Source: Halioxenophilus sp. WMMB6
GTDB taxonomy: Bacteria > Pseudomonadota > Gammaproteobacteria > Pseudomonadales > Cellvibrionaceae
Assembly: GCF_033283405.1 (NCBI RefSeq)
Contig: NZ_JAWMQR010000007.1
Coordinates: forward strand, 148,807 to 212,806
Length of the DNA stretch: 64,000 nt
Direction of reading: 5' to 3'
In this document: one piece after another, positions 12,739 through 63,450 of the stretch
Position numbering within the stretch: the stretch's first letter is position 1
Layout of the letters: every line of letters starts with the position of its first letter
The notes under the pieces: generated by a model
Told to the model about the DNA's origin: nothing
Databases searched by the model: none
What the model saw: the letters and a program-made list of their open reading frames with translations, nothing else
Translations under genes and position numbers: made by a program

Positions 12739-13590
12739 ATGAGTTACCAGGAGAAGATTTCTAGGGTGTGCGATTTTATTCAGCAAAACCTGGATGAGTC
12801 GTTGCCGCTCGACCGCCTGAGCCTGGTGGCCGGGTTTTCCAAGTACCATTTCGCCCGGCTGTTTGCGGCCAACACCGGCATCACAGTGAACCGCTTTATA
12901 CAATTGTGCCGACTGCGGCGGGCCTCTTTTCAACTGGCGTTTGAGCCGGAGCAGAAAATTATTGAGGTAGCGCTGGTGGCGGGGTTTGATAGTCCAGAGG
13001 CGTTTGCCCGGGCTTTTCGCCGGGTGTTTGATCAGTCGCCTTCGGAATTCCGCGCAGCGCCTAACTGGCCCCATTGGCACGCCCAATTTGAATTCTCTTT
13101 GCCGAGATCTGAAGGACAAACCATGACTGTAACCATTGTTGATTTTCCAGAAACCAAAATTGCCTATTTAACCCACCGGGGGGCGCCGGAATCTGTGCTT
13201 AACACCGTCAGCCAATTTATCGATTGGCGCAAAACCACCGGTTTATCTCCGGTCAAAACCAGTGCCACCTACGGTATTCCCAATGGCGACCCGAACACCA
13301 TGCCGGCGGAGGATTTCCGTTGGGATGTGTGCGGTACTATTGAGGCGGATGTGCCGGACAACGCGTTTGGTGTTACCACCGGTTTTATACCCGGCGGCCG
13401 CTGTGTTCGCGTACGCCATTTGGGCAGCCTGGATAATCTGGATCAGACTGTCTACCCCATCTACCGGGAGTGGCTGCCAGCTCAGGGTGAGGAGCCCGGT
13501 GATTTTCCCTGCTTTTTTCACTACCTCAATTTTGTACATGAGGTGGCAGAAGCTGAATTGATGACAGATGTCTATATTCCACTAAAGTAG
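12739..13590 (+). CDS. AraC-family transcriptional regulator with C-terminal GyrI-like effector-binding domain
   Basis: N-terminal AraC HTH (SLVAGFSKYHFARLF...VALVAGFDSPEAFARAFRRVF). C-terminal half has the GyrI-like fold signature. Confidence 0.8.
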   Translation: MSYQEKISRVCDFIQQNLDESLPLDRLSLVAGFSKYHFARLFAANTGITVNRFIQLCRLRRASFQLAFEPEQKIIEVALVAGFDSPEAFARAFRRVFDQSPSEFRAAPNWPHWHAQFEFSLPRSEGQTMTVTIVDFPETKIAYLTHRGAPESVLNTVSQFIDWRKTTGLSPVKTSATYGIPNGDPNTMPAEDFRWDVCGTIEADVPDNAFGVTTGFIPGGRCVRVRHLGSLDNLDQTVYPIYREWLPAQGEEPGDFPCFFHYLNFVHEVAEAELMTDVYIPLK

Positions 13591-13641
13591 CCAACTCACT
13601 TTTTTATTGGGTGCGAATAAATTATTTGCGCTCCCGCCAAA

Positions 13642-13674
13642 TAAAAACCGGCCGAAAATATGGCCGGTTTTTTC
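13642..13674. terminator. bidirectional rho-independent terminator (aaaaaccggcc-gaaaatat-ggccggtttttt)
   Basis: 6-bp GC stem with A-run and T-run flanks between convergent genes. Confidence 0.75.
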
Positions 13675-23858: not shown

Positions 23859-25136
23859 ATGTCAGTAGCAGCAGTGCTTGAGAAAGACTATTTTACGGAT
23901 TATTCAATTCTCCTCGATCCCTACGAATATTTTGATGCTATGCGTGCGATTGGCCCGGTGTGTGAAATGCCAGCCACGGGTGCCTTGCTGGTTACCGGCT
24001 TTAAAGAGGCGGTGGAGGTTCTGCGCAACAATGTCGATTTCTCCTCCATTAATTCCACGGTTGGGGCCGGTGTGCCATTGCCGTTTGAGCCTAATGGCAG
24101 CGATATCAGTGAACAGCTGGAGCAGCATCGAGACTTCTATGTCGGTGGCGACCTGGTGGTTACCTTTGATGATGGCCGGCACCGGGCACTGCGCTCTATT
24201 GCCAATAAACTGTTCACCCCTTCGCGTTTAAAACAGAACCAGGAGTACATTCACCAGCTGGCCAAAACCATGGTGCAACAAGCGGTAATGCAGGGCGGGT
24301 GTGATCTGGTGAATGATATCGCCACACCGTTTGTAACCTTGGTGATCGCCGATCTATTGGGCGTGCCGGCTGAAGACCGGGAAAAATTCCGGGAGGTGAT
24401 CGACAATGCGCCACCGCCGGGAAATTTGGATCAGTCTGACGCGCCGACCGAAAACTCGCCTCTGGTGTTTATGGGGACCTATTTTTTTCAATATTTGATG
24501 GATCGTAAATCCTCGCCGAAAGCAGATGTGCTGACCGAATTGGCGCAAGCGACCTATCCCGATGGCAGCGAGGCAGATCTGTTGGATATGGTCAAGCTGG
24601 CAACCTTTATGTTTGGTGCAGGCCAGGATACCAGTGCCAAACTGCTCTCCAACGCCATGAAATATATCGTCGATATTCCGGGGCTGCAGGCGCAATTACG
24701 GGCGGATCCGAAATTGATCGGTAATTTTTTGGAAGAGGTTTTGCGGTTGGAGGGCTCGACCAAAGCGACTACCCGCGTTGCCCGCAAGGATACCCAGATT
24801 GGTGAGCGTAAGGTGTCGGCCGGTACGCGGGTGCTGGTGGCGCTGGCAGCGGCTAACCGTGATCCAATGCGTTGGCCAAAGCCCAACACCTTTATTCTTA
24901 ACCGCCCAAAAATAGCGGAGCATGTTGCCTTTGGTCGTGGTGTGCATACCTGTGTGGGCGCACCCCTGGCCAGAACAGAGGTGCGGATCATCCTGGAGCA
25001 CTTCCTGGCTGCAACCCGTGAGATCGGCTTGTGCGAAAGCAATCATGGCTCCGCCAACGCTAGAAAATTTAACTATGAAGCGAGTTTTATTATTCGCGGG
25101 TTAAGCGAATTATTTATTACGTTGGCAGCAAACTAA
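23859..25136 (+). CDS. cytochrome P450
   Basis: GGAGG 5 nt upstream of ATG 23859. Heme-thiolate loop FGRGVHTCVGAPLA, ExxR (EVLRLE) and the I-helix AGQDTS motif. Confidence 0.9.
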   Translation: MSVAAVLEKDYFTDYSILLDPYEYFDAMRAIGPVCEMPATGALLVTGFKEAVEVLRNNVDFSSINSTVGAGVPLPFEPNGSDISEQLEQHRDFYVGGDLVVTFDDGRHRALRSIANKLFTPSRLKQNQEYIHQLAKTMVQQAVMQGGCDLVNDIATPFVTLVIADLLGVPAEDREKFREVIDNAPPPGNLDQSDAPTENSPLVFMGTYFFQYLMDRKSSPKADVLTELAQATYPDGSEADLLDMVKLATFMFGAGQDTSAKLLSNAMKYIVDIPGLQAQLRADPKLIGNFLEEVLRLEGSTKATTRVARKDTQIGERKVSAGTRVLVALAAANRDPMRWPKPNTFILNRPKIAEHVAFGRGVHTCVGAPLARTEVRIILEHFLAATREIGLCESNHGSANARKFNYEASFIIRGLSELFITLAAN

Positions 25137-25175
25137 TTTATATCGCGGCTCATTATTAAATGGAAAAATTATTTG

Positions 25176-25209
25176 ACAGTGGTTTTTCAGTGAGTAGAAT
25201 GCCGCCCAA
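25176..25209 (+). promoter_or_regulatory. candidate sigma70 promoter TTGACA-N16-TAGAAT upstream of rtcB leader
   Basis: Near-consensus hexamers seen directly. Followed by a 9-codon uORF with AGGAGA RBS, a 7-bp hairpin (cttccga...tcggaag) and a T7 run before the rtcB RBS. Confidence 0.35.
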
Positions 25210-25418
25210 ATTCAATTCTTTACAGGAGAACTTTTTAATGCCAGCAGCGAGTAAAAGCAGTAGCTAGTTCTTCCGAGTGTTTCATTCGGAAGGGCCATCA
25301 TTCCTTCCGAGTCAGATCTAAAAGCCCTGACCGGATCTCCAGTTGGGGTTTTTTTATGCCCGTTTGTCGGCCAATAAGCCCCGTATTATTTATACTCATT
25401 TTTGAGTAGGGACTCTTT

Positions 25419-26627
25419 ATGCCTATTAAAATGGAATTAAACAAAAATAGCGGCAACGGTGGTAAGCCGGTAAAAATTTATACGCATGACATTGAACAGA
25501 CAGCACTTACGCAGTTAAAAAATATTGCGCAACTACCATTTATTCACTCCCATATTGCCGCTATGCCGGATGTGCATACTGGTATAGGGGCAACGGTCGG
25601 TTCAGTGATTCCCACCGTGGCTGCCATTATTCCCGCCGCCGTGGGTGTTGATATCGGCTGTGGCATGATGGCAGTACAGCTCTCATTAAACTCGGCACAA
25701 CTGCCCGATGGTTTGGCGGCTATGCGCAGTGCTATTGAGCGGGCCGTGCCGGTGGGGCTGGCAGCACACAAAACGGTTGCTGTGCGGGAGAGCGCCTGCA
25801 AGCGCTTGCAGCCGCAGGTAGAGGCGCTGTTTGAACGCCACCCGCAATTGTTAAAAATGCAGAAGCACCCCAGGCAAACCTGGGCCAAGCAGGTCGCCAC
25901 GTTGGGTTCGGGTAACCACTTTATTGAAGTGTGTATCGACGAATCGAAAAAAGTGTGGGTGATGTTGCACAGTGGTAGTCGCGGGATTGGTAACAGCATC
26001 GGCCGTTACTTTATTCAGTTGGCCAAAAAAGATATGCAAGGTCATATTCATCATCTACCCGACAGAGACCTGGCGTACTTTGCTGAAGGCAATGACCATT
26101 TTGCCGACTATGTGGCGGCGGTGGAGTTTGCCCAGGAGTACGCGCGGATCAATCGGGAAGAGATGATGAAACTGGTGTTGCGCGCTATACAGCCTTTTCT
26201 ACCGGGCTTTGTTCTGCAAAAAGAGGCGATTAATTGTCACCATAATTATGTGGCGCGTGAACACCACTTTGATGCTGACGTGTATGTTACCCGCAAGGGG
26301 GCCATCAATGCCGAGCATGGGCGCTTGGGAATTATTCCCGGCAGTATGGGGGCTAAATCCTACATTGTGCGCGGTAAGGGTGAAGCGGAATCATTTTGCT
26401 CCTGCTCGCACGGTGCCGGCCGCACCATGAGCCGTACTGCGGCGAAAATGCAGTTTCGGCGCGAGGATTTAATTGCTCAGACCCGCGGTGTTGAGTGTCG
26501 TAAGGATGCTCACGTCATTGATGAAATTCCCGCGGCCTACAAAGATATCGACGAGGTGATGACCAATCAAACTGACCTGGTTGATATCGAACACACACTT
26601 AAGCAGGTACTTTGTGTGAAGGGCTAG
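25419..26627 (+). CDS. rtcB: RNA-splicing ligase RtcB (3'-phosphate/5'-hydroxyl RNA ligase)
   Basis: 402 aa. Conserved RtcB motifs (DVHTGIG, GSGNHF, HSGSRGIG, CSHGAGR) seen directly in the translation. Confidence 0.9.
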   Translation: MPIKMELNKNSGNGGKPVKIYTHDIEQTALTQLKNIAQLPFIHSHIAAMPDVHTGIGATVGSVIPTVAAIIPAAVGVDIGCGMMAVQLSLNSAQLPDGLAAMRSAIERAVPVGLAAHKTVAVRESACKRLQPQVEALFERHPQLLKMQKHPRQTWAKQVATLGSGNHFIEVCIDESKKVWVMLHSGSRGIGNSIGRYFIQLAKKDMQGHIHHLPDRDLAYFAEGNDHFADYVAAVEFAQEYARINREEMMKLVLRAIQPFLPGFVLQKEAINCHHNYVAREHHFDADVYVTRKGAINAEHGRLGIIPGSMGAKSYIVRGKGEAESFCSCSHGAGRTMSRTAAKMQFRREDLIAQTRGVECRKDAHVIDEIPAAYKDIDEVMTNQTDLVDIEHTLKQVLCVKG

Positions 26628-26683
26628 CGAGTTAAAGACTAGTACGTAGTGGCGTAACTATTAAATCAAACAAGGAGGAACCA

Positions 26684-26917
26684 ATGGCCAAGCGGCGTAA
26701 TACCCCGCGTAATTTACATGCCTGCCACCCGATCATGGGCAAAGGCGGTGTTCATGAAAAATCCAAGGGCGCCAAGCGCCAGGCGGTCAAGCACGAAACT
26801 CGCCGGAAGTCGAGCGAGTGGCTTGGCCGCTCTCATTTCTATTGGTCAATTTATTGCCGGCAGCGGTTGCAGGCGTGCCGACATTCACTATTGGTGTGTA
26901 TCGGCCCATTGGCCTAA
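26684..26917 (+). CDS. small Lys/Arg-rich protein of unknown function (possibly shorter; 3' end overlaps convergent gene)
   Basis: Strong SD (AAGGAGG, 6 nt spacing) before ATG 26684. N-terminal 50 aa MAKRRNTPRNLHACHPIMGKGGVHEKSKGAKRQAVKHETRRKSSEW is highly basic. The C-terminal 30 aa overlap the hydrolase gene and may be spurious. Confidence 0.3.
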   Translation: MAKRRNTPRNLHACHPIMGKGGVHEKSKGAKRQAVKHETRRKSSEWLGRSHFYWSIYCRQRLQACRHSLLVCIGPLA

Positions 26918-27934
26918 CTCACCTGCTACGCTTTGCCAAACCTGGTAGCCACGGGTACCGGTGCCGAGTGATCCTTCACGGGCGACAATGCCCACATAGT
27001 GGTGTTCAAAATCGATAAACGGGTAGGCGCCGTACGCACCAGCGCTGGAGACCCGGGTGGTGGTATCGCAATTAAACGGAGTGTTGGCGCACTCTATCCA
27101 GTTGCCGAAGCCGTAGTGCCAATCCTGGTCAATATCACCCTCATCCACGGGCGAGAAAGCGATAGTGGCATCGCCAATCTGATCACTGGTCATGGCCGTG
27201 AACAGTGTTGGCGATAATATTTCACCACGGTAGAGCGCCGCGAGAAAATCGAGATATTCACTTGCCTGCCAATGCATACCACCGGCCAAGCGCGGATTGC
27301 TGGCGGATGGCAGATCGTAACTGGCGTTGGCAAACAGCCCGGTGGCGGATGTGAAATAGTCGAATACCGCCTGCCAATCGGCCAACCCCGCAGCCTGAAC
27401 GGCCATTAAGCCGGCTACCTGCAGGTGAGTGCTGGCGTAATAAAACTGACTGCCGGGTGGTGGACTGCCGCTGTTGCTGCTGGCAAGCTGGGCAACGCAG
27501 TTGGCAAAGTCTGCTAGCGGATTATTAATACACAGTGGCTCCTCCGTAAGGCCGGAGGTAAAGCTGAGCAGATCACGCAGAGTGATCTGGGAGAGGTTGC
27601 CGCTGGTGGGCCAAAAGTCGAGATAGGCCTGGGGGTGATCCGAAAGCGATAAAATACCGTCCTCAACCAGCCGCAGAATAATTGTCGCAGTGACCATTTT
27701 GGAAGTGGAGGCGGAACGGTAACTGGTTTCTGCTGTGGAGTTGCCCCGGCTGTAGCTATATTGAGTACCATCGTTGGCCTGTACCAGCAGCGTGAAATCG
27801 CTGTCGGTTGCAATGCTGGAGAGAATCTGTTCAAGCTCGGCTTCGATGGAGGCTTGGCTGCCGGAGCCGCTCGAGCCTCCACAGCTGGCCAGTAACAGAG
27901 CAGCGGCCAGACTGACCAATGACAATCGCTTCAT
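26888..27934 (-). CDS. serine hydrolase, beta-lactamase fold (class C/esterase-like), lipoprotein
   Basis: Signal plus lipobox LLASCGG. Active-site S-x-x-K (SASTSKMVTATII). Confidence 0.8.
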   Translation of the reverse strand: MKRLSLVSLAAALLLASCGGSSGSGSQASIEAELEQILSSIATDSDFTLLVQANDGTQYSYSRGNSTAETSYRSASTSKMVTATIILRLVEDGILSLSDHPQAYLDFWPTSGNLSQITLRDLLSFTSGLTEEPLCINNPLADFANCVAQLASSNSGSPPPGSQFYYASTHLQVAGLMAVQAAGLADWQAVFDYFTSATGLFANASYDLPSASNPRLAGGMHWQASEYLDFLAALYRGEILSPTLFTAMTSDQIGDATIAFSPVDEGDIDQDWHYGFGNWIECANTPFNCDTTTRVSSAGAYGAYPFIDFEHHYVGIVAREGSLGTGTRGYQVWQSVAGELGQWADTHQ

Positions 27935-31423: not shown

Positions 31424-32578
31424 CTATTGCGCGCTTGTGGCTGGTGCTAGTTTCACCAGGCCGTGTAGCACACTGTCGAGGCCACCATAAACCGAAATTT
31501 TGTCGATCTTGGTGGTGATCCTTTCCAGCGCTTCCAGCTCTTTCAAACGCAGCAACACCGGGTTGTTCTCCATCACTTTGGCGGTGTTGTGCAGCGAGCG
31601 CATCGCCTGGGTCTCTTCATGGCGTTTAATCAGGTTGGCTTCAGCCTCCTTTTGCGCCTCCACTACCTGGTTTAAGATCTGCTTCATGTCGCCAGGCAAA
31701 ATAATATCTTTCACCCCAACACTTAACAGGTTGATACCGTAATCGGTCACCCGGTTGCGCACGCCCTCGGCAATCACCGCGTTTAACAGATCCTTGTCGA
31801 CTAACAGTTCATCCAGGTTTTTAGTACCTACCGCTTCCCGTAAGCGCAGTTGCAGCTCCAAGTACAAGAAGTTGAGGTAGTCCTTCAGCTGCAGTGCCAC
31901 CGATTTTGCATCGACAATTTTAAAGCTGGCGGTCAGGTTGATACGCAGGCTCACGCGATCCTTGGTGAGAATCTCCTGCCCGCTAACGTCCAGAGTTTGC
32001 AGGCGCAAATCGACCAGCTTAACGCTGATTGAGCGGTTGTATAACCAAAATCCGTAACGGCCAGTGGTCAACATCTTCTCCAGCTTGCCGTTAACAAACA
32101 GCATGCCCACCTGCTCATCGGGTACCTCGCTGTAACTGATGGCCTGTGCCAGGGTGCGGTTGTTAGCCAGGGTGGCTCCCCGGCCCAACAGGCCAATCAC
32201 GTCGTCGCCGATTTGATAATCGCTGGTGATATCCACCACACTGACGCTAACCTGCTCACCGCCGCGCCAGGTGGCCAACAGGCCCCCGGGTGGCAGAATA
32301 TCCGCCAGCTTGCCATCGCGATAGACGAGGCCGACTTCGCGGTCGGTCAGCTGCACCGCATCCACCACCCCGTCAAACAGCGGCTGGTACTGGCGCAATA
32401 AAAATTTCAGTCGCGGGTGGTTAAATTCCACGGCGGTAATATCGTAGTGCTCCACCCGCAAATCCTGCCCTAATGCCCACAGTCGTTGTCGACCGGGCAT
32501 TAAAATGGTTGCCAGGCGGTTGCGTCGGTAAACCAGGGCCCGCTCGTTATCGGCAACGTCGATCATTTTCCATAACAT
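31424..32578 (-). CDS. SPFH/band-7 (stomatin-like) domain protein with two extra N-terminal partial SPFH-like modules, no obvious TM anchor
   Basis: GGAGG RBS. C-terminal canonical SPFH region (KLVDLRLQTLDV...VIAEGVRNRVTDYGINLLSVGVKDIILP...EAQKEAEANL). Three repeats of an (E/R)xVGLVYRxGKLxxIL-like module. Confidence 0.8.
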   Translation of the reverse strand: MLWKMIDVADNERALVYRRNRLATILMPGRQRLWALGQDLRVEHYDITAVEFNHPRLKFLLRQYQPLFDGVVDAVQLTDREVGLVYRDGKLADILPPGGLLATWRGGEQVSVSVVDITSDYQIGDDVIGLLGRGATLANNRTLAQAISYSEVPDEQVGMLFVNGKLEKMLTTGRYGFWLYNRSISVKLVDLRLQTLDVSGQEILTKDRVSLRINLTASFKIVDAKSVALQLKDYLNFLYLELQLRLREAVGTKNLDELLVDKDLLNAVIAEGVRNRVTDYGINLLSVGVKDIILPGDMKQILNQVVEAQKEAEANLIKRHEETQAMRSLHNTAKVMENNPVLLRLKELEALERITTKIDKISVYGGLDSVLHGLVKLAPATSAQ

Positions 32579-32880
32579 AATCGTTCCTCCATTAATGATC
32601 GTTTCTCTATTATTAATTTAAAGCGAGGCTCACTGAGCCGGGTCGCGGCTAACGGTTTGGCTTGTTCAGGCGAAGACTCAGGTGTTTGCCGGCAGCCATA
32701 GGCGATGACAAAAGCCACCCGACGGTTGAAGACAAAACCAGAAGCCTGCGCGTGCACAAGCCACCCACCATGAGCGGTTACCCGGCTCGGGTTGGTTTGA
32801 ACCGCATTACCTGAACTGCCGGCAAAGACGGAATCTGGCCAACCGTGAACCTCTAGTTGATTTATAAACAAGCACCATAA

Positions 32881-32940
32881 GCTTGTGAGGACTCGAACCT
32901 CTGGGTCTCTCGACCTCTACCATTGAGCCGTTTACACGGC
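32881..32940 (-). other. tRNA-like remnant (D-arm-like GCTCAATGGTAGAG plus T-arm-like GAGGTTCGAGTCCTC, no anticodon arm)
   Basis: Motifs seen directly. Only about 13 nt between the D- and T-arm motifs. Followed by a CAAGC-TTATGGT-GCTTG hairpin. Confidence 0.4.
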
Positions 32941-32942
32941 GG

Positions 32943-33016
32943 AGTTTTTGGCGGGATTCGAACCCGCTACCGATAGATTATTAATCTACTGCTCTACCCG
33001 AATGAGCTACAAAAAC
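32943..33016 (-). tRNA. non-canonical tRNA-like gene: full 74-nt cloverleaf, anticodon loop TTAATAA (anticodon AAT), acceptor stem GUUUUUG/CAAAAAC, no encoded CCA
   Basis: Manual fold: 7-bp acceptor, D-arm GCTC-ATTCGGGTA-GAGC, anticodon stem GTAGA/TCTAT (part of the perfect palindrome TAGATTAATAATCTA), variable loop CGGTA, T-arm GCGGG-TTCGAAT-CCCGC. Confidence 0.45.
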
Positions 33017-33145
33017 GGTGGTTTATGTCCACCCGGCAATTGGTACACACAACGGTAGTACCGCCTGCGCCGGACTGGCCTTTGGAACCAGTGCCGCTAA
33101 TTACCGGGCGAGAGATAAACTCTGTGTGGCCAATGCCTAAAAAAA

Positions 33146-33703
33146 TTAGGCTTGAGGCCAAATCCGGTTTCCGGAAAATTGCTTCTCCAGATACTCCATT
33201 TGATCCGCCAGTACTTGGTGTTGGGCCAAAAACAGCCCTTCACTCCGGTTGGGGCAGAAAGGCACCGCCAGTAACACCATGCCCGCCTGTTCCGGTGTAC
33301 GGTCGGCTTTAAAGTGGTTGCAGCGCTTACAGGCGGCCACCACATTTTGCCAACGGTTTTGGCCGCCCTGTGCGCGCGGCACAATGTGGTCGCAGGTGAG
33401 CTCACGGGCTAAAAAGCGCTGACCACAATACATACAACGGTAGTTATCCCGGCGAAACAGCAGCCGGTTGCACAAAGGTGGCGCCGGCTGTGCTTGCTGC
33501 TCCCGGCCGCGAGTGGCGATAATGGCGCGCAGAGCAATGTGGGAGCGCTGGCCGCTTGCCCGATTTACACCGCCGGTCAGGTTGAAAATTAACTCGCCCA
33601 GCTCCCACTGCACCTGATTTTTTACATAGAGCAGCGCTGCCTCCGAGCGGGATAGCCAGGCGGTGGCGGTGCCGGTGCTATCCAGGCGCAAGATGCTAAC
33701 CAT
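33146..33703 (-). CDS. HNH endonuclease family protein
   Basis: AGGAGA RBS. HNH motif CMYCGQRF...CDHIVPRAQGGQNRWQNVVAACKRCNHFKADR seen directly. Confidence 0.8.
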   Translation of the reverse strand: MVSILRLDSTGTATAWLSRSEAALLYVKNQVQWELGELIFNLTGGVNRASGQRSHIALRAIIATRGREQQAQPAPPLCNRLLFRRDNYRCMYCGQRFLARELTCDHIVPRAQGGQNRWQNVVAACKRCNHFKADRTPEQAGMVLLAVPFCPNRSEGLFLAQHQVLADQMEYLEKQFSGNRIWPQA

Positions 33704-33721
33704 GGTCTTCTCCTGGTATGG

Positions 33722-34012
33722 TTACCGATAAAAATTTGCGCCATCGATGGATCGATAGCCGCAACTGTTTAAAAGCGTGCCGAGCTGTGCCCGCCGGCTG
33801 CGATCAGATTCGGTCAGCACCACTCTGTTCGGTAGCCGTGATCGGCTTTGCGCCCAGCGTAAAACCACACAGCTGTTGTCCCGTCCGTGTAGTGAAAAGT
33901 CGACCGCCAACACCGAGATGACCAATTCGTTCAGCGCCTTTTTAGCGCTGCGGCTGTCTCTGCAGTAGAGGTCTGCACTGAACACAGCGCGTTTACCCAA
34001 AGCGACTCGCAT
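33722..34012 (-). CDS. hypothetical protein (96 aa), co-oriented 18 nt upstream of HNH gene
   Basis: Very strong SD (AAGGAGGAG) before ATG 34012. Lies directly downstream of the tRNA-Lys gene. No recognisable domain. Confidence 0.45.
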   Translation of the reverse strand: MRVALGKRAVFSADLYCRDSRSAKKALNELVISVLAVDFSLHGRDNSCVVLRWAQSRSRLPNRVVLTESDRSRRAQLGTLLNSCGYRSIDGANFYR

Positions 34013-34051
34013 TGCTTCTCCTCCTTGATGTAAAAATTGCCAATAGTTAAT

Positions 34052-34126
34052 TGGTTGGAGGTATGGGAGTCGAACCCATCTGTGCCGGAGTAAAAGTCCG
34101 GTGCTCTGCCGCTAAGCCAACCCCCA
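34052..34126 (-). tRNA. tRNA-Lys (anticodon UUU), CCA encoded
   Basis: Manual cloverleaf: acceptor TGGGGGT/ACCTCCA, anticodon arm CCGGA-CTTTTAC-TCCGG, T-arm ATGGG-TTCGACT-CCCAT, discriminator A then CCA. Confidence 0.8.
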
Positions 34127-34168
34127 ATAAAAATCCTTGGTCAATTTGTCTGCTTTACTGCCGAATAA

Positions 34169-34243
34169 TGGCAGCAGCCTCAGGGCTCGAACCTGAAATA
34201 CGTGAGTCAAAGTCACGTGTGTTACCCATTACACCAGGCTGCT
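34169..34243 (-). tRNA. tRNA-Gln (anticodon UUG), CCA encoded
   Basis: Manual cloverleaf: acceptor AGCAGCC/GGCTGCT, D-arm GTGT-AATGGGTA-ACAC, anticodon arm CGTGA-CTTTGAC-TCACG, T-arm TCAGG-TTCGAGC-CCTGA, discriminator G then CCA. Confidence 0.8.
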
Positions 34244-34279
34244 GGAGTACTAAATTTAATGGTGATCAATATCATTGGC

Positions 34280-34366
34280 TGGCAGCGGTGAGATTCGAAC
34301 TGACACGGCGCCGCAAGTCACCGCACGGATTAGTAATCCGCTGCCGTACCGTTCAGCCATGCTGCC
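34280..34366 (-). tRNA. type II (long variable arm) tRNA-like gene with anticodon loop TTACTAA (anticodon ACT; Ser-like), mismatches in acceptor (A7:C66) and T-stem (C:C); possible pseudo-tRNA
   Basis: Manual fold: GGCAGCA-TG-GCTG-AACGGTA-CGGC-A-GCGGA-TTACTAA-TCCGT, about 20-nt variable arm, GTCAG-TTCGAAT-CTCAC, CGCTGCC-A. No CCA. Confidence 0.4.
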
Positions 34367-34410
34367 AATAATCTTCCCGTTTGAGTTTTCTGGCTCGCTT
34401 GGCCATAAAA

Positions 34411-34439
34411 AAACCCCGGGGTTGCCCACCGGGGTTTTT
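34411..34439. terminator. bidirectional terminator-like hairpin (A7-ccccgg-ggttgccca-ccgggg-T5)
   Basis: Seen directly, upstream of the minus-strand tRNA array. A second 7-bp hairpin ccggaagg...ccttccg follows. Confidence 0.5.
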
Positions 34440-34639
34440 GCGAACCGGAAGGCATCAGCCTTCCGCGGAATGCTGATATTAAAACAAAATAAGCGCCTGG
34501 CTTAGGCCGAAGCTCTGGTCGTCACACAGGTGGCCACTGGTCGCTATTAACAGTGTTTTGGCAGCGTGGACGGCAATCGCTTGCAGGTGACCTATTGGTT
34601 GTTGGTTCATCGCTATTCTTAATTGGGTAGTCATTAATT

Positions 34640-34678
34640 TGTTTTCTGTTTTCTGTTTTCTGTTTTCTGTTTTCTGTC
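34640..34678. repeat. heptanucleotide microsatellite (TGTTTTC)x5.5
   Basis: Seen directly. Followed by hairpin ctcgct-tgcgatagc-agcgag plus T5 (plus-strand terminator-like). Confidence 0.95.
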
Positions 34679-35396
34679 TGTGCTATTTCTTAGCCCTCGC
34701 TTGCGATAGCAGCGAGCTTTTTAAACGATACGGCCCCAAAAATATTTTGGCAATGCGAATTATTTTGGCGTTCTTGTTGAATTTATACTTTGGTTATAAC
34801 GCCACCAGGGCTGCCATTTTTGCTAGGGCGAGCGCTGGCCTATCGCACTGTTTGACGATATTGCAGACGAGGGTGTTGGTAGAAGATCTGGATTTATTGC
34901 AGAGCTTCCCCGCCGGTAAAAATGGTTGCTTCATATAGAAATAATTAGTCTAAGCCCTTTCTCTCTATTGCCTCGATTTACGTTTATTGATTCAACTTTC
35001 AGGTGAAAAAAAACCCGAAAAGCGTGTTGGCCTTCCGGGTTTCTCGATCTGTGAATGGTCTGTTGAGACGGCGACTGCGAGAGCTGGAAGGCGGTGCCTG
35101 CCAGAACTCAATTCCTACAGGCAAATTATGGGCGCTGGAAATCCTCCTGAGTGAGATTTAACACTCGGGCGGCCCTGGGGTAACAACTGTTATGTTTGGT
35201 GATTGAAAAAATCATTGCTGTAGCTTCTAAAAAAGTGGGCGGATTATAGGTGAGCTATTTAACCGGCACAACCAGTGCTGTGGTGGCGGTTTTGGTGGGC
35301 GAGCGGATTTACACGATAAGTGGTTGCCATTGATGATTTAACGCCGCTGGGGTCGGTTTAACCCGCAAGCAGGGCTTGCGGGTGGGTGGCGCAGGA

Positions 35397-62909: not shown

Positions 62910-63450
62910 ATTTTCCGGGGCTCCTGCCCCGGAAAATTGTCGCCACGCACAAGCGGACGCAATTGTAAAAATTGCTGGTTGTGCGTGACTCGCATTGGCG
63001 CTGCCAATGGTGGTGCATCCCTGCACCACACGCACAACTAAACTCAGTGCCCAGGGCTCCTGCCCCGGAAAATTGTCGCCACGCACAAGCGGGTGCAATT
63101 GTAAAAATTGCTGGTTGTGTGTGACTCGCATTGGCGCTGCCAATGGTGGTGCATCCCTGCACCACACGCACAACTAAACTCAGTACCCAGGGCTTCTGCC
63201 CCGGAAAATTGTCGCCCCGCACAAGCGGGCGCAATTGTAAAAATTGCTGGTTGTGCGTGACTCGCATTGGCGCTGCCAATGGTGGTGCATCCCTGCACCA
63301 CACGCACAACTAAACTCAGTACGCAGGGCTCCTGTCCCGGAAAATTGTTGCCACGCACAAGCGGGCGCAATTGTAAAAATTGCTGGTTGTGCGTGACTCG
63401 CATTGGCGCTGCCAGTGGTAGTGCATCCGTGTAGCGCGCATTTAATCCGG
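62910..63450. repeat. tandem array of four about 136-bp repeat units (period 136, copies differ by a few SNPs), each with 3 or more internal stem-loops
   Basis: Unit landmarks ctcctgcccc at 62921, 63057, 63193, 63329. Internal hairpins ccgggg-ctcctg-ccccgg, gcaatt-gtaaaa-aattgc and gtgca-tccc-tgcac seen directly. Confidence 0.9.

Follow-up and report, generated by a model that had tools for sequence, protein, structure and literature searches.

A probable ribosome-dependent transcription attenuator in the leader of an rtcB gene without rtcR or rtcA nearby

RtcR, a sigma-54 activator with a CARF domain, controls rtcBA in Escherichia coli and Salmonella. Under this regulator rtcB is reported to respond to impaired translation or damaged tRNA (Engl 2016 and Hughes 2020, as cited in PMC8421152). 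For the many bacteria that lack RtcR, no description of rtcB control was found in the literature searched. In Acinetobacter baumannii exposed to tigecycline, rtcB and the gene directly downstream were the most induced (252-fold), and the authors of that study could merely speculate on the cause of the rtcB induction (PMC7652931); rtcB of this species is also induced by minocycline (PMC9741440). The closest precedent for the locus described here appears to be the PA5471.1-armZ system of Pseudomonas aeruginosa (with PA5470), the comparison being made with its published description. In that system the RtcB-like gene armZ (PA5471) is under the control of PA5471.1, a leader of 13 codons, and complete translation of PA5471.1 results in termination, while stalling results in readthrough (Morita et al. 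2009, as described in PMC13041342, PMC12057347, and PMC3516279). In Anabaena, TrcR represses a translational-stress regulon that comprises a long tRNA array (the trn operon), the HNH gene all8564, and rtcB (PMC8421152, PMC10272220).

The DNA analysed here is a stretch of 64 kb, referred to as the window, and the region of interest is the 282-nt spacer ahead of its rtcB gene. Judged from sequence, this spacer is probably a leader-peptide transcription attenuator, dependent on the ribosome, that gates rtcB and probably also the small ORF behind it. It contains a sigma-70 promoter, a Shine-Dalgarno sequence (SD), a 9-codon upstream ORF (uORF), five pairing segments (A to E), and a T7 terminator, all on the plus strand. 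The -35 hexamer TTGACA (25173..25178) and the -10 hexamer TAGAAT (25195..25200) are spaced by N16, jointly match 11 of 12 consensus positions, and form the sole promoter-like site on the plus strand within 24500-27200; their spacing would place the transcription start at about 25207. A TTGACA-16-TAnnnT promoter was present in seven relatives, with the 16-nt spacer in L081, L082, L084, L001, L002, and L003; for an eighth relative, L083, the sequence examined includes no more than the -10 hexamer. The SD of the uORF, AGGAGA (25224..25229), is located 8 nt ahead of the ATG, and the uORF (25238..25267) consists of 9 sense codons and TAG (ATG CCA GCA GCG AGT AAA AGC AGT AGC TAG), encoding MPAASKSSS. 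The uORF and segment A share one base, the last of the stop codon and the first of A.

Segment A (GUUCUUCCGAGUG, 25267..25279) is the partner of segment B and is predicted to be masked by a ribosome at the stop codon. Segment B (CAUUCGGAAGGGC, 25283..25295) can pair with either A or C, and segment C (UCCUUCCGAGUCAG, 25302..25315) pairs with B through 25302-25311 and with D through 25307-25315, the latter pairing being the antiterminator. Segment D (25320..25334) contains the terminator 5' arm (AAAAGCCCUGAC, 25320-25331) and the antiterminator partner of C (25327-25334), and segment E (25342..25355) is the terminator 3' arm GUUGGGG with a U7 run (25349-25355). The stem formed by 25320-25331 with 25342-25353, followed by the T-run, constitutes an intrinsic terminator between the uORF and rtcB. 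An additional helix, H0, pairs 25225-25232 with 25266-25273 (-6.6 kcal/mol) and offers an alternative pairing for the SD region of the uORF; its columns were 74.5% paired across relatives, and it may be a by-product of the CCUUCC-like segment A. The spacer after the terminator (25356..25409) starts with ATGCC and could hold a second small ORF, MPVCRPISPVLFILIFE plus a stop codon, which showed no conservation among the leaders of relatives; ATGCC directly 3' of the T-run was found in 12/39 leaders and in the close relatives L081 and L084. Sequence inspection and folding also revealed a small hairpin, ACUCA-UUUU-UGAGU, followed by the SD-like AGGGA of rtcB (25394..25412). In relatives, a covarying hairpin was read by eye ahead of TAGGAG.

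Most of these parts had been listed in an earlier note on the same DNA, which interpreted them as an attenuation or ribosome-stalling leader replacing RtcR/sigma-54 control, and this interpretation is supported by the presence of all parts, two exclusive folds, conservation ahead of rtcB in many RtcR-less proteobacteria, and compensatory changes. The promoter of the note was present, with its coordinates amended from 25176-25209 to 25173-25200, and AGGAGA with the 9-codon MPAASKSSS frame was found as described. The 7-bp hairpin CTTCCGA/TCGGAAG proved to be the core of a 13-bp A:B helix, the second element TTCCTTCCGAG is real and lies in segment C, where either neighbour can be its partner, and CCAGTTGGGG with T7 was confirmed as the 3' arm of the intrinsic terminator.

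The pairings A:B, B:C, C:D, and D:E constitute a chain of overlapping helices with shared strands that reaches back to the uORF. Two mutually exclusive folds result, A:B with C:D (antiterminator) versus B:C with D:E (terminator): C:D ties up the terminator 5' arm, and D:E followed by U7 is the intrinsic terminator. A:B is a helix of 13 bp (25267-25279 with 25283-25295, -17.7 kcal/mol), and the alternative pairing of B with C has -13.2 kcal/mol. Folding of the leader was more stable than that of shuffled sequences (z = -3.2 to -3.3). Without E transcribed, A:B plus C:D had an energy of -28.1 kcal/mol versus -19.8 for H0 plus B:C, and once E was present H0 plus B:C plus D:E reached -32.0. The minimum-free-energy fold changed with the length of RNA folded, and the decision of the switch must therefore be kinetic. 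At equilibrium, the full-length terminator won in almost all leaders. Because equilibrium folds of full-length masked leaders were uninformative, the terminator always winning, ribosome masking was simulated on transcripts cut just ahead of the terminator 3' arm and then folded. With the footprint of a ribosome masked at the last uORF codons, the predicted fold changed from A:B to B:C. For the window leader, the masked ribosome lowered predicted antiterminator pairing merely from 0.78 to 0.57; for betaproteobacterial leaders, predicted pairing was 0.70-0.77 with the ribosome at codons 1-4 and 0.07-0.31 without a ribosome or with one at the last codons. Simulated antiterminator pairing in the Acinetobacter subfamily was independent of ribosome position. 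When C:D duplex energy was compared with shuffles leader by leader, significance was weak (mean z = -1.0; p < 0.05 in 11%), and covariation was therefore used instead.

The mechanism suggested by these folds would operate as follows. Transcription from the near-consensus sigma-70 promoter would yield a leader RNA carrying the SD-led 9-codon uORF, segments A to E, and U7. With prompt translation of the uORF, the ribosome would sit at the stop codon and mask A, so that B would pair with C, D would be left free, the D:E terminator would form, and transcription would end at about 25355. Should no ribosome occupy the stop codon in time, whether because initiation is blocked, the ribosome stalls early, tRNA or 16S rRNA is damaged, or translation inhibitors are present, A:B would form first, C would then pair with D, and RNA polymerase would read through into rtcB. 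Because the conserved features of the uORF are length and position alone, the leader would sense general translation failure and not shortage of one amino acid. An attenuator at rtcB in many proteobacteria would account for the induction of this gene by translation-blocking antibiotics, and an A. baumannii locus (L195) has a leader of matching layout (MPTLQGKTQ plus stop codon, hairpins, and terminator), its rtcB being followed by a small ORF homologous to that of the window.

Conservation of the layout was assessed at 76 gamma- and betaproteobacterial loci using an automatic criterion of SD, short ORF, and terminator upstream of rtcB. The layout was found at 33 of the 76, compared with 3/76 for reverse complements and 0-1/76 for shuffles. 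Manual curation identified the layout with an SD-led ORF at 39/80 loci, the distance from stop codon to T-run being 69-156 nt overall and 77-102 nt in most. The leader stays with rtcB despite differing upstream genes between loci, consistently in the same orientation and directly upstream of rtcB or its operon. Outside the helices, conservation extends to the SD, the start codon, the length of the uORF, and its stop-to-A junction, the last of which was conserved in the alignment. An open frame of 9 codons has no significance by itself; nine codons were found in the seven closest relatives, with the position of the stop also kept, and orthologous peptides were unrelated (MTKQMRYKI, MQNVKSQFK, MPNTESHKI, MFNKGSQFN, MKNELSLFK, and MTYAGYTNA). 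A search of metagenomes with the pattern CCGAGTCAG-N(1-14)-AARCCCTGAC returned 105 matching stretches, of which 80 were examined, L091 being the one real leader followed by rtcB; the pattern being short, about 105 matches were estimated to be expected by chance.

Paired percentages in the alignments of relatives are inflated, since the structure tested came from the window sequence; with that reading, a structure-blind MAFFT alignment gave 79% paired and 14 compensatory pairs for the terminator state, and 72% and 13 for the antiterminator state. In an alignment fitted to the terminator-state model, the unfitted antiterminator was 75.5% paired with 14 compensatory pairs, a percentage reached by 0/500 shuffles, and slid controls gave 30-56%. 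Compensatory change was present at 9/12 pairs of the A:B helix, the C:D helix was 84% paired with 4/8 pairs changed on both sides, and the terminator helix was 94-95% paired across relatives, also with compensatory changes. The A:B core and the terminator were recovered independently by RNAalifold. No conserved unpaired nucleotides, ligand-pocket-type junctions, or single-stranded seed were detected in the aligned leaders, where helices alone are kept. An Rfam scan of the leader region returned nothing above the gathering threshold, the best scores being those of His_leader (RF00514; 26.9 bits vs 49) and NsiR1 (23.8 vs 39).

The rtcB gene (25419..26627, plus strand) encodes a canonical-type RtcB of 402 aa (Pfam RtcB, E = 8.8e-126), 100% identical to the RtcB of Halioxenophilus sp. 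WMMB6, 55% identical over the full length to RtcB of E. coli K-12, and below the cut-offs of the PrfH-linked models TIGR03073 (132.4 vs 271.8) and PRK09588 (168 vs 407). Downstream of it on the same strand is a small basic ORF of 77 aa (26684..26917) with a conserved core of about 50 aa and an RN...KGG.H...W motif, which is probably co-transcribed with rtcB. This ORF adjoins rtcB at 14 other loci (tblastn), aligns with the ORF of 52 aa that follows rtcB in A. baumannii, and had no Pfam or NCBIfam match. The term orphan, which had been applied to this rtcB, is only partly right in view of the conserved small ORF behind the gene and of the tRNA/HNH/SPFH module mentioned below. No homologues of RtcA, RtcR, or PrfH were found in the 64-kb window by tblastn (E. 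coli RtcR and RtcA queries), in keeping with the reported lack of rtcR and rtcA, and no sigma-54-like promoter (TGGCAC-N5-TTGC at <=2 mismatches) was found from 24745 to 26166. Within flanks of about 3 kb, rtcR was absent from all related loci and rtcA was nearby at one only (L077); no regulator gene consistently linked to the rtcB leader loci was found. A module of tRNA, HNH, and SPFH genes with related elements is situated 5-9 kb from rtcB.

Other explanations of the spacer were weighed against these data. An amino-acid- or tRNA-specific attenuator, in which four AGY serine codons and one AAA lysine codon would stall the ribosome if seryl-tRNA(GCU) or lysyl-tRNA were scarce or cleaved, would suit the last five sense codons of the uORF (5/5 AGU, AGC, or AAA), the neighbouring accessory tRNA set at 32941-34367, which encodes tRNA-Ser(ACU) and tRNA-Lys(UUU), and the weak Rfam His-leader match, which reflects attenuator shape alone. 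It is nevertheless improbable, as orthologous uORFs have no common Ser or Lys pattern, Ser makes up 8% of residues across 39 uORFs, and the His_leader score is far under its threshold. In the window AGC is the commonest Ser codon and AGT accounts for 14%, so that neither is rare, AAA is the major Lys codon, and the occurrence of four AGY codons out of four is not significant (p ~0.07, estimated from window codon shares). A serine-specific sensor is not supported, because the uORF sequence is not conserved and length and stop position alone are kept; the earlier proposal that a Ser-rich uORF senses seryl-tRNA finds no support in conservation or codon usage, and the looser idea of a leader responsive to RNA damage or to the state of translation agrees with the data. 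The terminated transcript of about 150 nt might instead be mainly a trans-acting sRNA or the mRNA of a functional micropeptide, with rtcB control secondary. Attenuator RNAs such as rnTrpL are able to act in trans (PMC6614838), and the element does have a strong promoter, a terminator of its own, and a stable fold; the idea is compatible with attenuation, but it is unlikely as the main function, given that helices are conserved and neither a single-stranded seed nor the peptide is, and that the element is constantly found upstream of rtcB or its operon in one orientation.

A trans-acting factor, for example a protein, a small ligand, or a tRNA in uncharged or cleaved form, might instead set the choice between terminator and antiterminator, the uORF being incidental. 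The alternative folds are indeed present regardless of the uORF, and elements based on GGAAGG/CCUUCC but lacking an evident short uORF adjoin tRNA and HNH genes elsewhere, but this too is hardly likely: the leaders are without the conserved unpaired nucleotides or junctions needed for a ligand pocket, match no Rfam family, and are accompanied by no consistently linked regulator gene, while the SD, start codon, uORF length, and stop-to-A junction are the non-helical features that are conserved. A reading without any regulator, in which the promoter and 5' UTR are ordinary, the hairpins arose by chance, and the terminator is leaky or belongs to the upstream P450 gene, is very improbable. Isolated hairpins and hexamers resembling a promoter are frequent, and terminator-like sites numbered 7 in the scanned region against 3.5 expected; the promoter, however, precedes the terminator, the layout is kept ahead of rtcB in distant genera with any upstream gene, and both folds show compensatory changes. 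A ribosome-dependent attenuator is the reading preferred here.

Elements directly upstream of accessory tRNA or HNH genes were likewise matched by a covariance model derived from the rtcB leaders. In the window, such an element scored 32 bits at 34407-34506 (minus strand) and lies 40 nt ahead of tRNA-Ser(ACU). Two related elements precede a divergent tRNA array adjoining rtcB in Agarilytica, a related element in Thalassocella was also matched by the rtcB-leader model, and three metagenome-assembled genomes have the order element, tRNAs, SPFH gene, rtcB. A match at 13545-13674 was weak and was rejected as an ordinary gene-end terminator, and many opposite-strand matches were set aside as two-way terminators. 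It is possible, though rather doubtful, that the rtcB leader is one of a family of GGAAGG/CCUUCC-based attenuators wiring a whole island for translational stress in gammaproteobacteria, marine ones among them. If so, stalled or damaged ribosomes would turn on spare tRNAs and associated genes at the same time as an RNA ligase, purely in cis, and the arrangement would be an attenuator-built proteobacterial counterpart of the cyanobacterial repressor-controlled tRNA-array/rtcB regulon. For rtcB itself, a conserved ribosome-sensing leader would supply a concrete and directly testable mechanism in RtcR-less bacteria, in which the enzyme repairing broken tRNA or rRNA would be produced just as the ribosome signals failing translation. 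Such a leader could also serve as a compact reporter of translation stress and is a candidate new Rfam family.

Among known systems, PA5471.1-armZ shares with this locus a short leader ORF upstream of an RtcB-family gene, PA5471.1 being transcribed from a constitutive promoter. Full translation there lets a terminator hairpin form, as proposed here, and readthrough results from ribosome stalling by ribosome-targeting drugs or in suhB or cca mutants, which may be compared with the stalling proposed for this leader. The differences are that the window gene encodes a canonical RtcB (sharing 55% identity with that of E. coli) and not of the PrfH-linked type, that no prfH is present in the window, that the uORF has 9 codons instead of 13, and that the terminator-to-gene spacer is 63 nt, the P. 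aeruginosa leader being placed about 250 bp upstream of its gene. The attenuator suggested here would extend that single studied case to canonical RtcB across gamma- and betaproteobacteria. As in trpL, hisL, and thrL, a leader peptide is combined with overlapping alternative hairpins and an intrinsic terminator, and the fold would be set by ribosome position; unlike in those leaders, no conserved run of regulatory codons is present. There are five segments instead of the four of trp, and the predicted default of the untranslated RNA is therefore readthrough, in contrast to termination in trp. The RtcR system has the same output gene, rtcB, but relies on a protein that binds tRNA fragments, whereas sensing here would be carried out in cis by the ribosome. 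In the ermC/ermB, mef/mel, bmrCD, and vmlR leaders, an inhibitor-stalled ribosome on a uORF likewise remodels the leader and turns the gene on (PMC8274638, PMC4335068, PMC4191407, PMC9226507). In many of those systems, arrest depends on motifs specific to the drug and the peptide, whereas the peptide is not conserved here; several act on translation, whereas transcription is the proposed level here, and the target in this case is an RNA repair ligase and not a resistance determinant. The Anabaena TrcR regulon, whose genes are induced upon translation inhibition (PMC8421152, PMC10272220), resembles the present arrangement in linking rtcB to arrays of accessory tRNAs and to a gene for an HNH endonuclease, and differs in that a repressor acts on direct repeats in the promoter, the corresponding control here being predicted to reside in cis-acting attenuators.

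The 282-nt spacer at 25137-25418 separates a cytochrome P450 gene (23847-25136) from rtcB (25419-26627, plus strand; Pfam RtcB, E = 8.8e-126). Its reading as an attenuator controlling rtcB, anticipated by the earlier note as an attenuation or ribosome-stalling leader, has good support from the in silico evidence and from expression data published for a bacterium with the same leader layout. The elements described in that note were confirmed. The promoter TTGACA-N16-TAGAAT, matching 11 of 12 consensus positions, is present in the spacer, at 25173-25200 on the plus strand and thus slightly away from the coordinates first given; a promoter scan of 24500-27200 found no second promoter-like site on the rtcB strand. 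On the same strand lie the Shine-Dalgarno (SD) site AGGAGA (25224-25229) and the 9-codon uORF, ATG CCA GCA GCG AGT AAA AGC AGT AGC TAG (25238-25267). The 7-bp hairpin is present as the core of a 13-bp helix, and both the second ttccttccgag element and ccagttgggg followed by T7 are real. A small hairpin was also seen at 25394-25412, immediately 5' of the rtcB SD site, and in relatives a covarying hairpin (CCA...TGG, CCG...CGG) was recognized by eye ahead of TAGGAG.

Folding indicated that the leader RNA is more stable than shuffled sequences (z of about -3.2). Explicit helix evaluation defined segments A (25267-25279, whose first base is also the final one of the uORF stop), B (25283-25295), C (25302-25315), D (25320-25334), and E with its U7 run (25342-25355), with helix energies of -17.7 kcal/mol for A:B, -13.2 for B:C, -10.4 for C:D, and -12.2 for D:E; a further helix, H0, pairs the SD strand (25225-25232) with 25266-25273 at -6.6 kcal/mol. 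Because neighboring helices share strands, the RNA must choose between A:B plus C:D, which sequesters the 5' arm of the terminator, and B:C plus D:E, which is an intrinsic terminator. Both states were obtained in two foldings, the outcome being set solely by the length of RNA folded. Before E is synthesized, A:B plus C:D (-28.1 kcal/mol) clearly beats H0 plus B:C (-19.8 kcal/mol by helix evaluation), and the choice between folds would have to be kinetic.

The leader was compared with those of 80 rtcB loci from species-representative genomes; the window RtcB matches the Halioxenophilus sp. WMMB6 protein at 100% identity. In many gamma- and betaproteobacteria rtcB is preceded by the same layout, which runs from a promoter and SD site through a uORF (8-15 codons, rarely longer) to hairpins and a strong terminator; examples are Cellvibrio, Microbulbifer, Marinobacter, Alloalcanivorax, Competibacter, Thiotrichaceae, Acinetobacter, Massilia, Duganella, Janthinobacterium, and Steroidobacter, and in most of these leaders the uORF stop lies 77-102 nt from the terminator. 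An automatic criterion detected it in 33 of 76 rtcB loci, as against 3 of 76 reverse complements and 0-1 of 76 shuffles. Seven closer relatives were added, by protein look-ups except for one that came from a metagenome. All seven have a uORF of exactly 9 codons whose stop lies directly 5' of helix A, and six carry TTGACA-16-TAnnnT (for the seventh, locus L083, only the -10 lies inside the printed stretch). The layout, uORF length, and stop position are thus kept, but the peptides are unrelated (MTKQMRYKI, MQNVKSQFK, MPNTESHKI, MFNKGSQFN, MKNELSLFK, and MTYAGYTNA). Since the genes upstream vary by locus, the element belongs to rtcB. Three sequence subfamilies were distinguished (Cellvibrionales-type, Oxalobacteraceae-type, and Acinetobacter-type), whose helices are made from different sequences. 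As a separate observation, ATGCC comes immediately after the U-run in 12 of 39 leaders spanning different subfamilies (25349-25360 in the window), as ATGCC or ATGGCC does in the tRNA-associated elements; 15 of 39 uORFs have proline (CCN) as their second codon, and most rtcB genes themselves begin ATGCC.

The structures scored for covariation came from the window leader itself, a caveat on the paired percentages. When 15 leaders of the window's subfamily were aligned with MAFFT, blind to structure, pairing in the terminator state reached 79%, with both sides changed in 14 pairs; 0 of 500 shuffles attained that paired fraction (slid controls, 39-70%). The antiterminator state reached 72%, with 13 such double changes, and its C:D helix 85%. 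A covariance model of the terminator state was then used to re-align 17 sequences. On this alignment the antiterminator state, to which it was not fitted, was 75.5% paired with 14 compensatory pairs, matched by 0 of 500 shuffles (slid controls, 30-56%); the terminator state, used for the fitting, was 83.7% paired. The A:B core and the terminator were recovered independently by RNAalifold.

In masked folding, a ribosome footprint on the last codons shifted the predicted nascent-RNA fold from A:B to B:C, which would free D for the terminator; with the ribosome absent or on early codons, A:B and C:D would form. In simulations of the betaproteobacterial subfamily, antiterminator pairing was 0.70-0.77 with the ribosome at codons 1-4 and 0.07-0.31 without a ribosome or with one at the last codons, the low values reflecting pairing of the antiterminator strand with the SD region itself. 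The simulated change was modest for the window leader (0.78 to 0.57), and the switch was not reproduced for the Acinetobacter subfamily. The common logic would be that transcription terminates when the uORF is translated promptly and to its end, and reads through when the ribosome is missing, held up at initiation, or stalls early on. As to the signal, the earlier note had suggested that the serine-rich uORF senses seryl-tRNA. This was not supported, as the peptide is not conserved and its Ser and Lys codons are common ones; from the same two features we infer that the leader senses general translation failure. Damage to tRNA or to the 3' end of 16S rRNA, both known substrates of RtcB (papers cited in PMC9741440 and PMC8421152), would count as such failure.

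Published transcriptomes fit the attenuator model. In A. baumannii exposed to tigecycline, the top induced genes are rtcB and a hypothetical gene directly downstream (252-fold), the authors offering only speculation as to the cause (PMC7652931), and rtcB is induced by minocycline as well (PMC9741440). In an A. baumannii locus retrieved for comparison, the leader encodes MPTLQGKTQ* and has hairpins and a terminator; rtcB follows, and then a 52-aa ORF whose position matches that of the co-induced gene (PMC7652931). This ORF is homologous to a small basic ORF of the window (26684-26917, plus strand; 77 aa, conserved core RN..A....KGG.H..K...W), which has no Pfam or NCBIfam family and is kept downstream of rtcB in 14 other loci. 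The description of rtcB as an orphan is only partly right: neither rtcA nor rtcR was found in the window, but this companion ORF follows the gene. In 22 of the fetched loci (e.g., L083, 3770-4711), rtcB has as its neighbor, on one side or the other, a 313-aa protein of no known family that is absent from the window.

Leader-like elements also occur upstream of an accessory tRNA module on the minus strand (31424-35160), which contains an SPFH/Band-7 gene (31424-32578), tRNA-Ile(AAU) (32941-33016), an HNH endonuclease gene (33146-33703), a 96-aa ORF, tRNA-Lys(UUU) (34052-34126), tRNA-Gln(UUG) (34169-34243), and tRNA-Ser(ACU) (34276-34367). The covariance model matched 34407-34506 (minus strand; 32 bits, E = 2.7e-5), a GGAAGGC/GCCUUCC hairpin with a terminator 40 nt before tRNA-Ser, and 35007-35156 (minus strand; 21 bits). 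An A in the first anticodon position, as in ACU and AAU, is unusual in bacteria. Some five tandem copies of the 7-nt unit CAGAAAA, at about 34641-34680 on the minus strand, lie just upstream of a 51-aa ORF that ends at the first element. The same module pieces adjoin rtcB elsewhere: two such elements precede a divergent tRNA array in Agarilytica, the elements stand in front of the HNH gene in Thalassocella, and three metagenome-assembled genomes show an element, tRNAs, the SPFH gene, and rtcB in that order. By locus, homologous elements precede tRNA or HNH genes as pairs in L081 and L196 and singly in L019, L017, and L006. Another pairing of tRNA and RNA repair genes was seen in Zooshikella ganghwensis (L197, 6189-9696), where the gene that comes after tRNA-Met, tRNA-Leu, tRNA-Lys, a 98-aa ORF, and the HNH gene is not rtcB but one for an Rnl-type RNA ligase (PF09414).

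With respect to known regulators, the window RtcB is canonical (sharing 55% identity with the E. coli protein along its whole length), and its membership of the PrfH-coupled subfamily was rejected; prfH was likewise not found in the window. A pattern scan found no sigma-54-like promoter at rtcB; as a by-product only, it returned the 15-mer TGGCAGCGCCAATGC four times at exactly 136-nt spacing (62992, 63128, 63264, and 63400, minus strand), which suggests a tandem repeat of period 136 at 62992-63414. Within flanks of about 3 kb, no related locus has rtcR and only L077 has rtcA nearby; there (1609-2935) rtcA lies upstream, and between it and rtcB sits a leader whose 12-codon uORF reads MQHKAIDNLNNT and which includes a terminator; it matches the model only weakly (2779-2935, 17.6 bits). 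In E. coli K-12 (L191, 1729-1790), AAGGAGG and a 15-codon uORF (MTNPLSMTLCRPFQD*) lie upstream of the pseudogenes ykfJ (truncated rtcB2) and prfH, and ykfJ is inducible by 4-azaleucine (PMC3516279). Leader peptides may be general for RtcB-family genes without RtcR.

No description of a leader for canonical rtcB was found in the literature searched, and no Rfam family matched; the element is classified as a widespread, so far uncurated leader, the kind of regulator itself being already known. Among known systems, the nearest is the PA5471.1 leader peptide of P. aeruginosa, which controls armZ by attenuation responding to ribosome stalling; armZ is an RtcB-like gene followed by a release-factor gene (PMC3516279, PMC12057347, PMC13041342), whereas the window gene is a canonical rtcB without prfH in the window. 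Cyanobacteria under translational stress induce tRNA arrays, an HNH gene, and rtcB together through the repressor TrcR (PMC8421152, PMC10272220); by analogy, the proteobacterial set of tRNA, HNH, and rtcB genes may reach the same end by putative attenuators instead.
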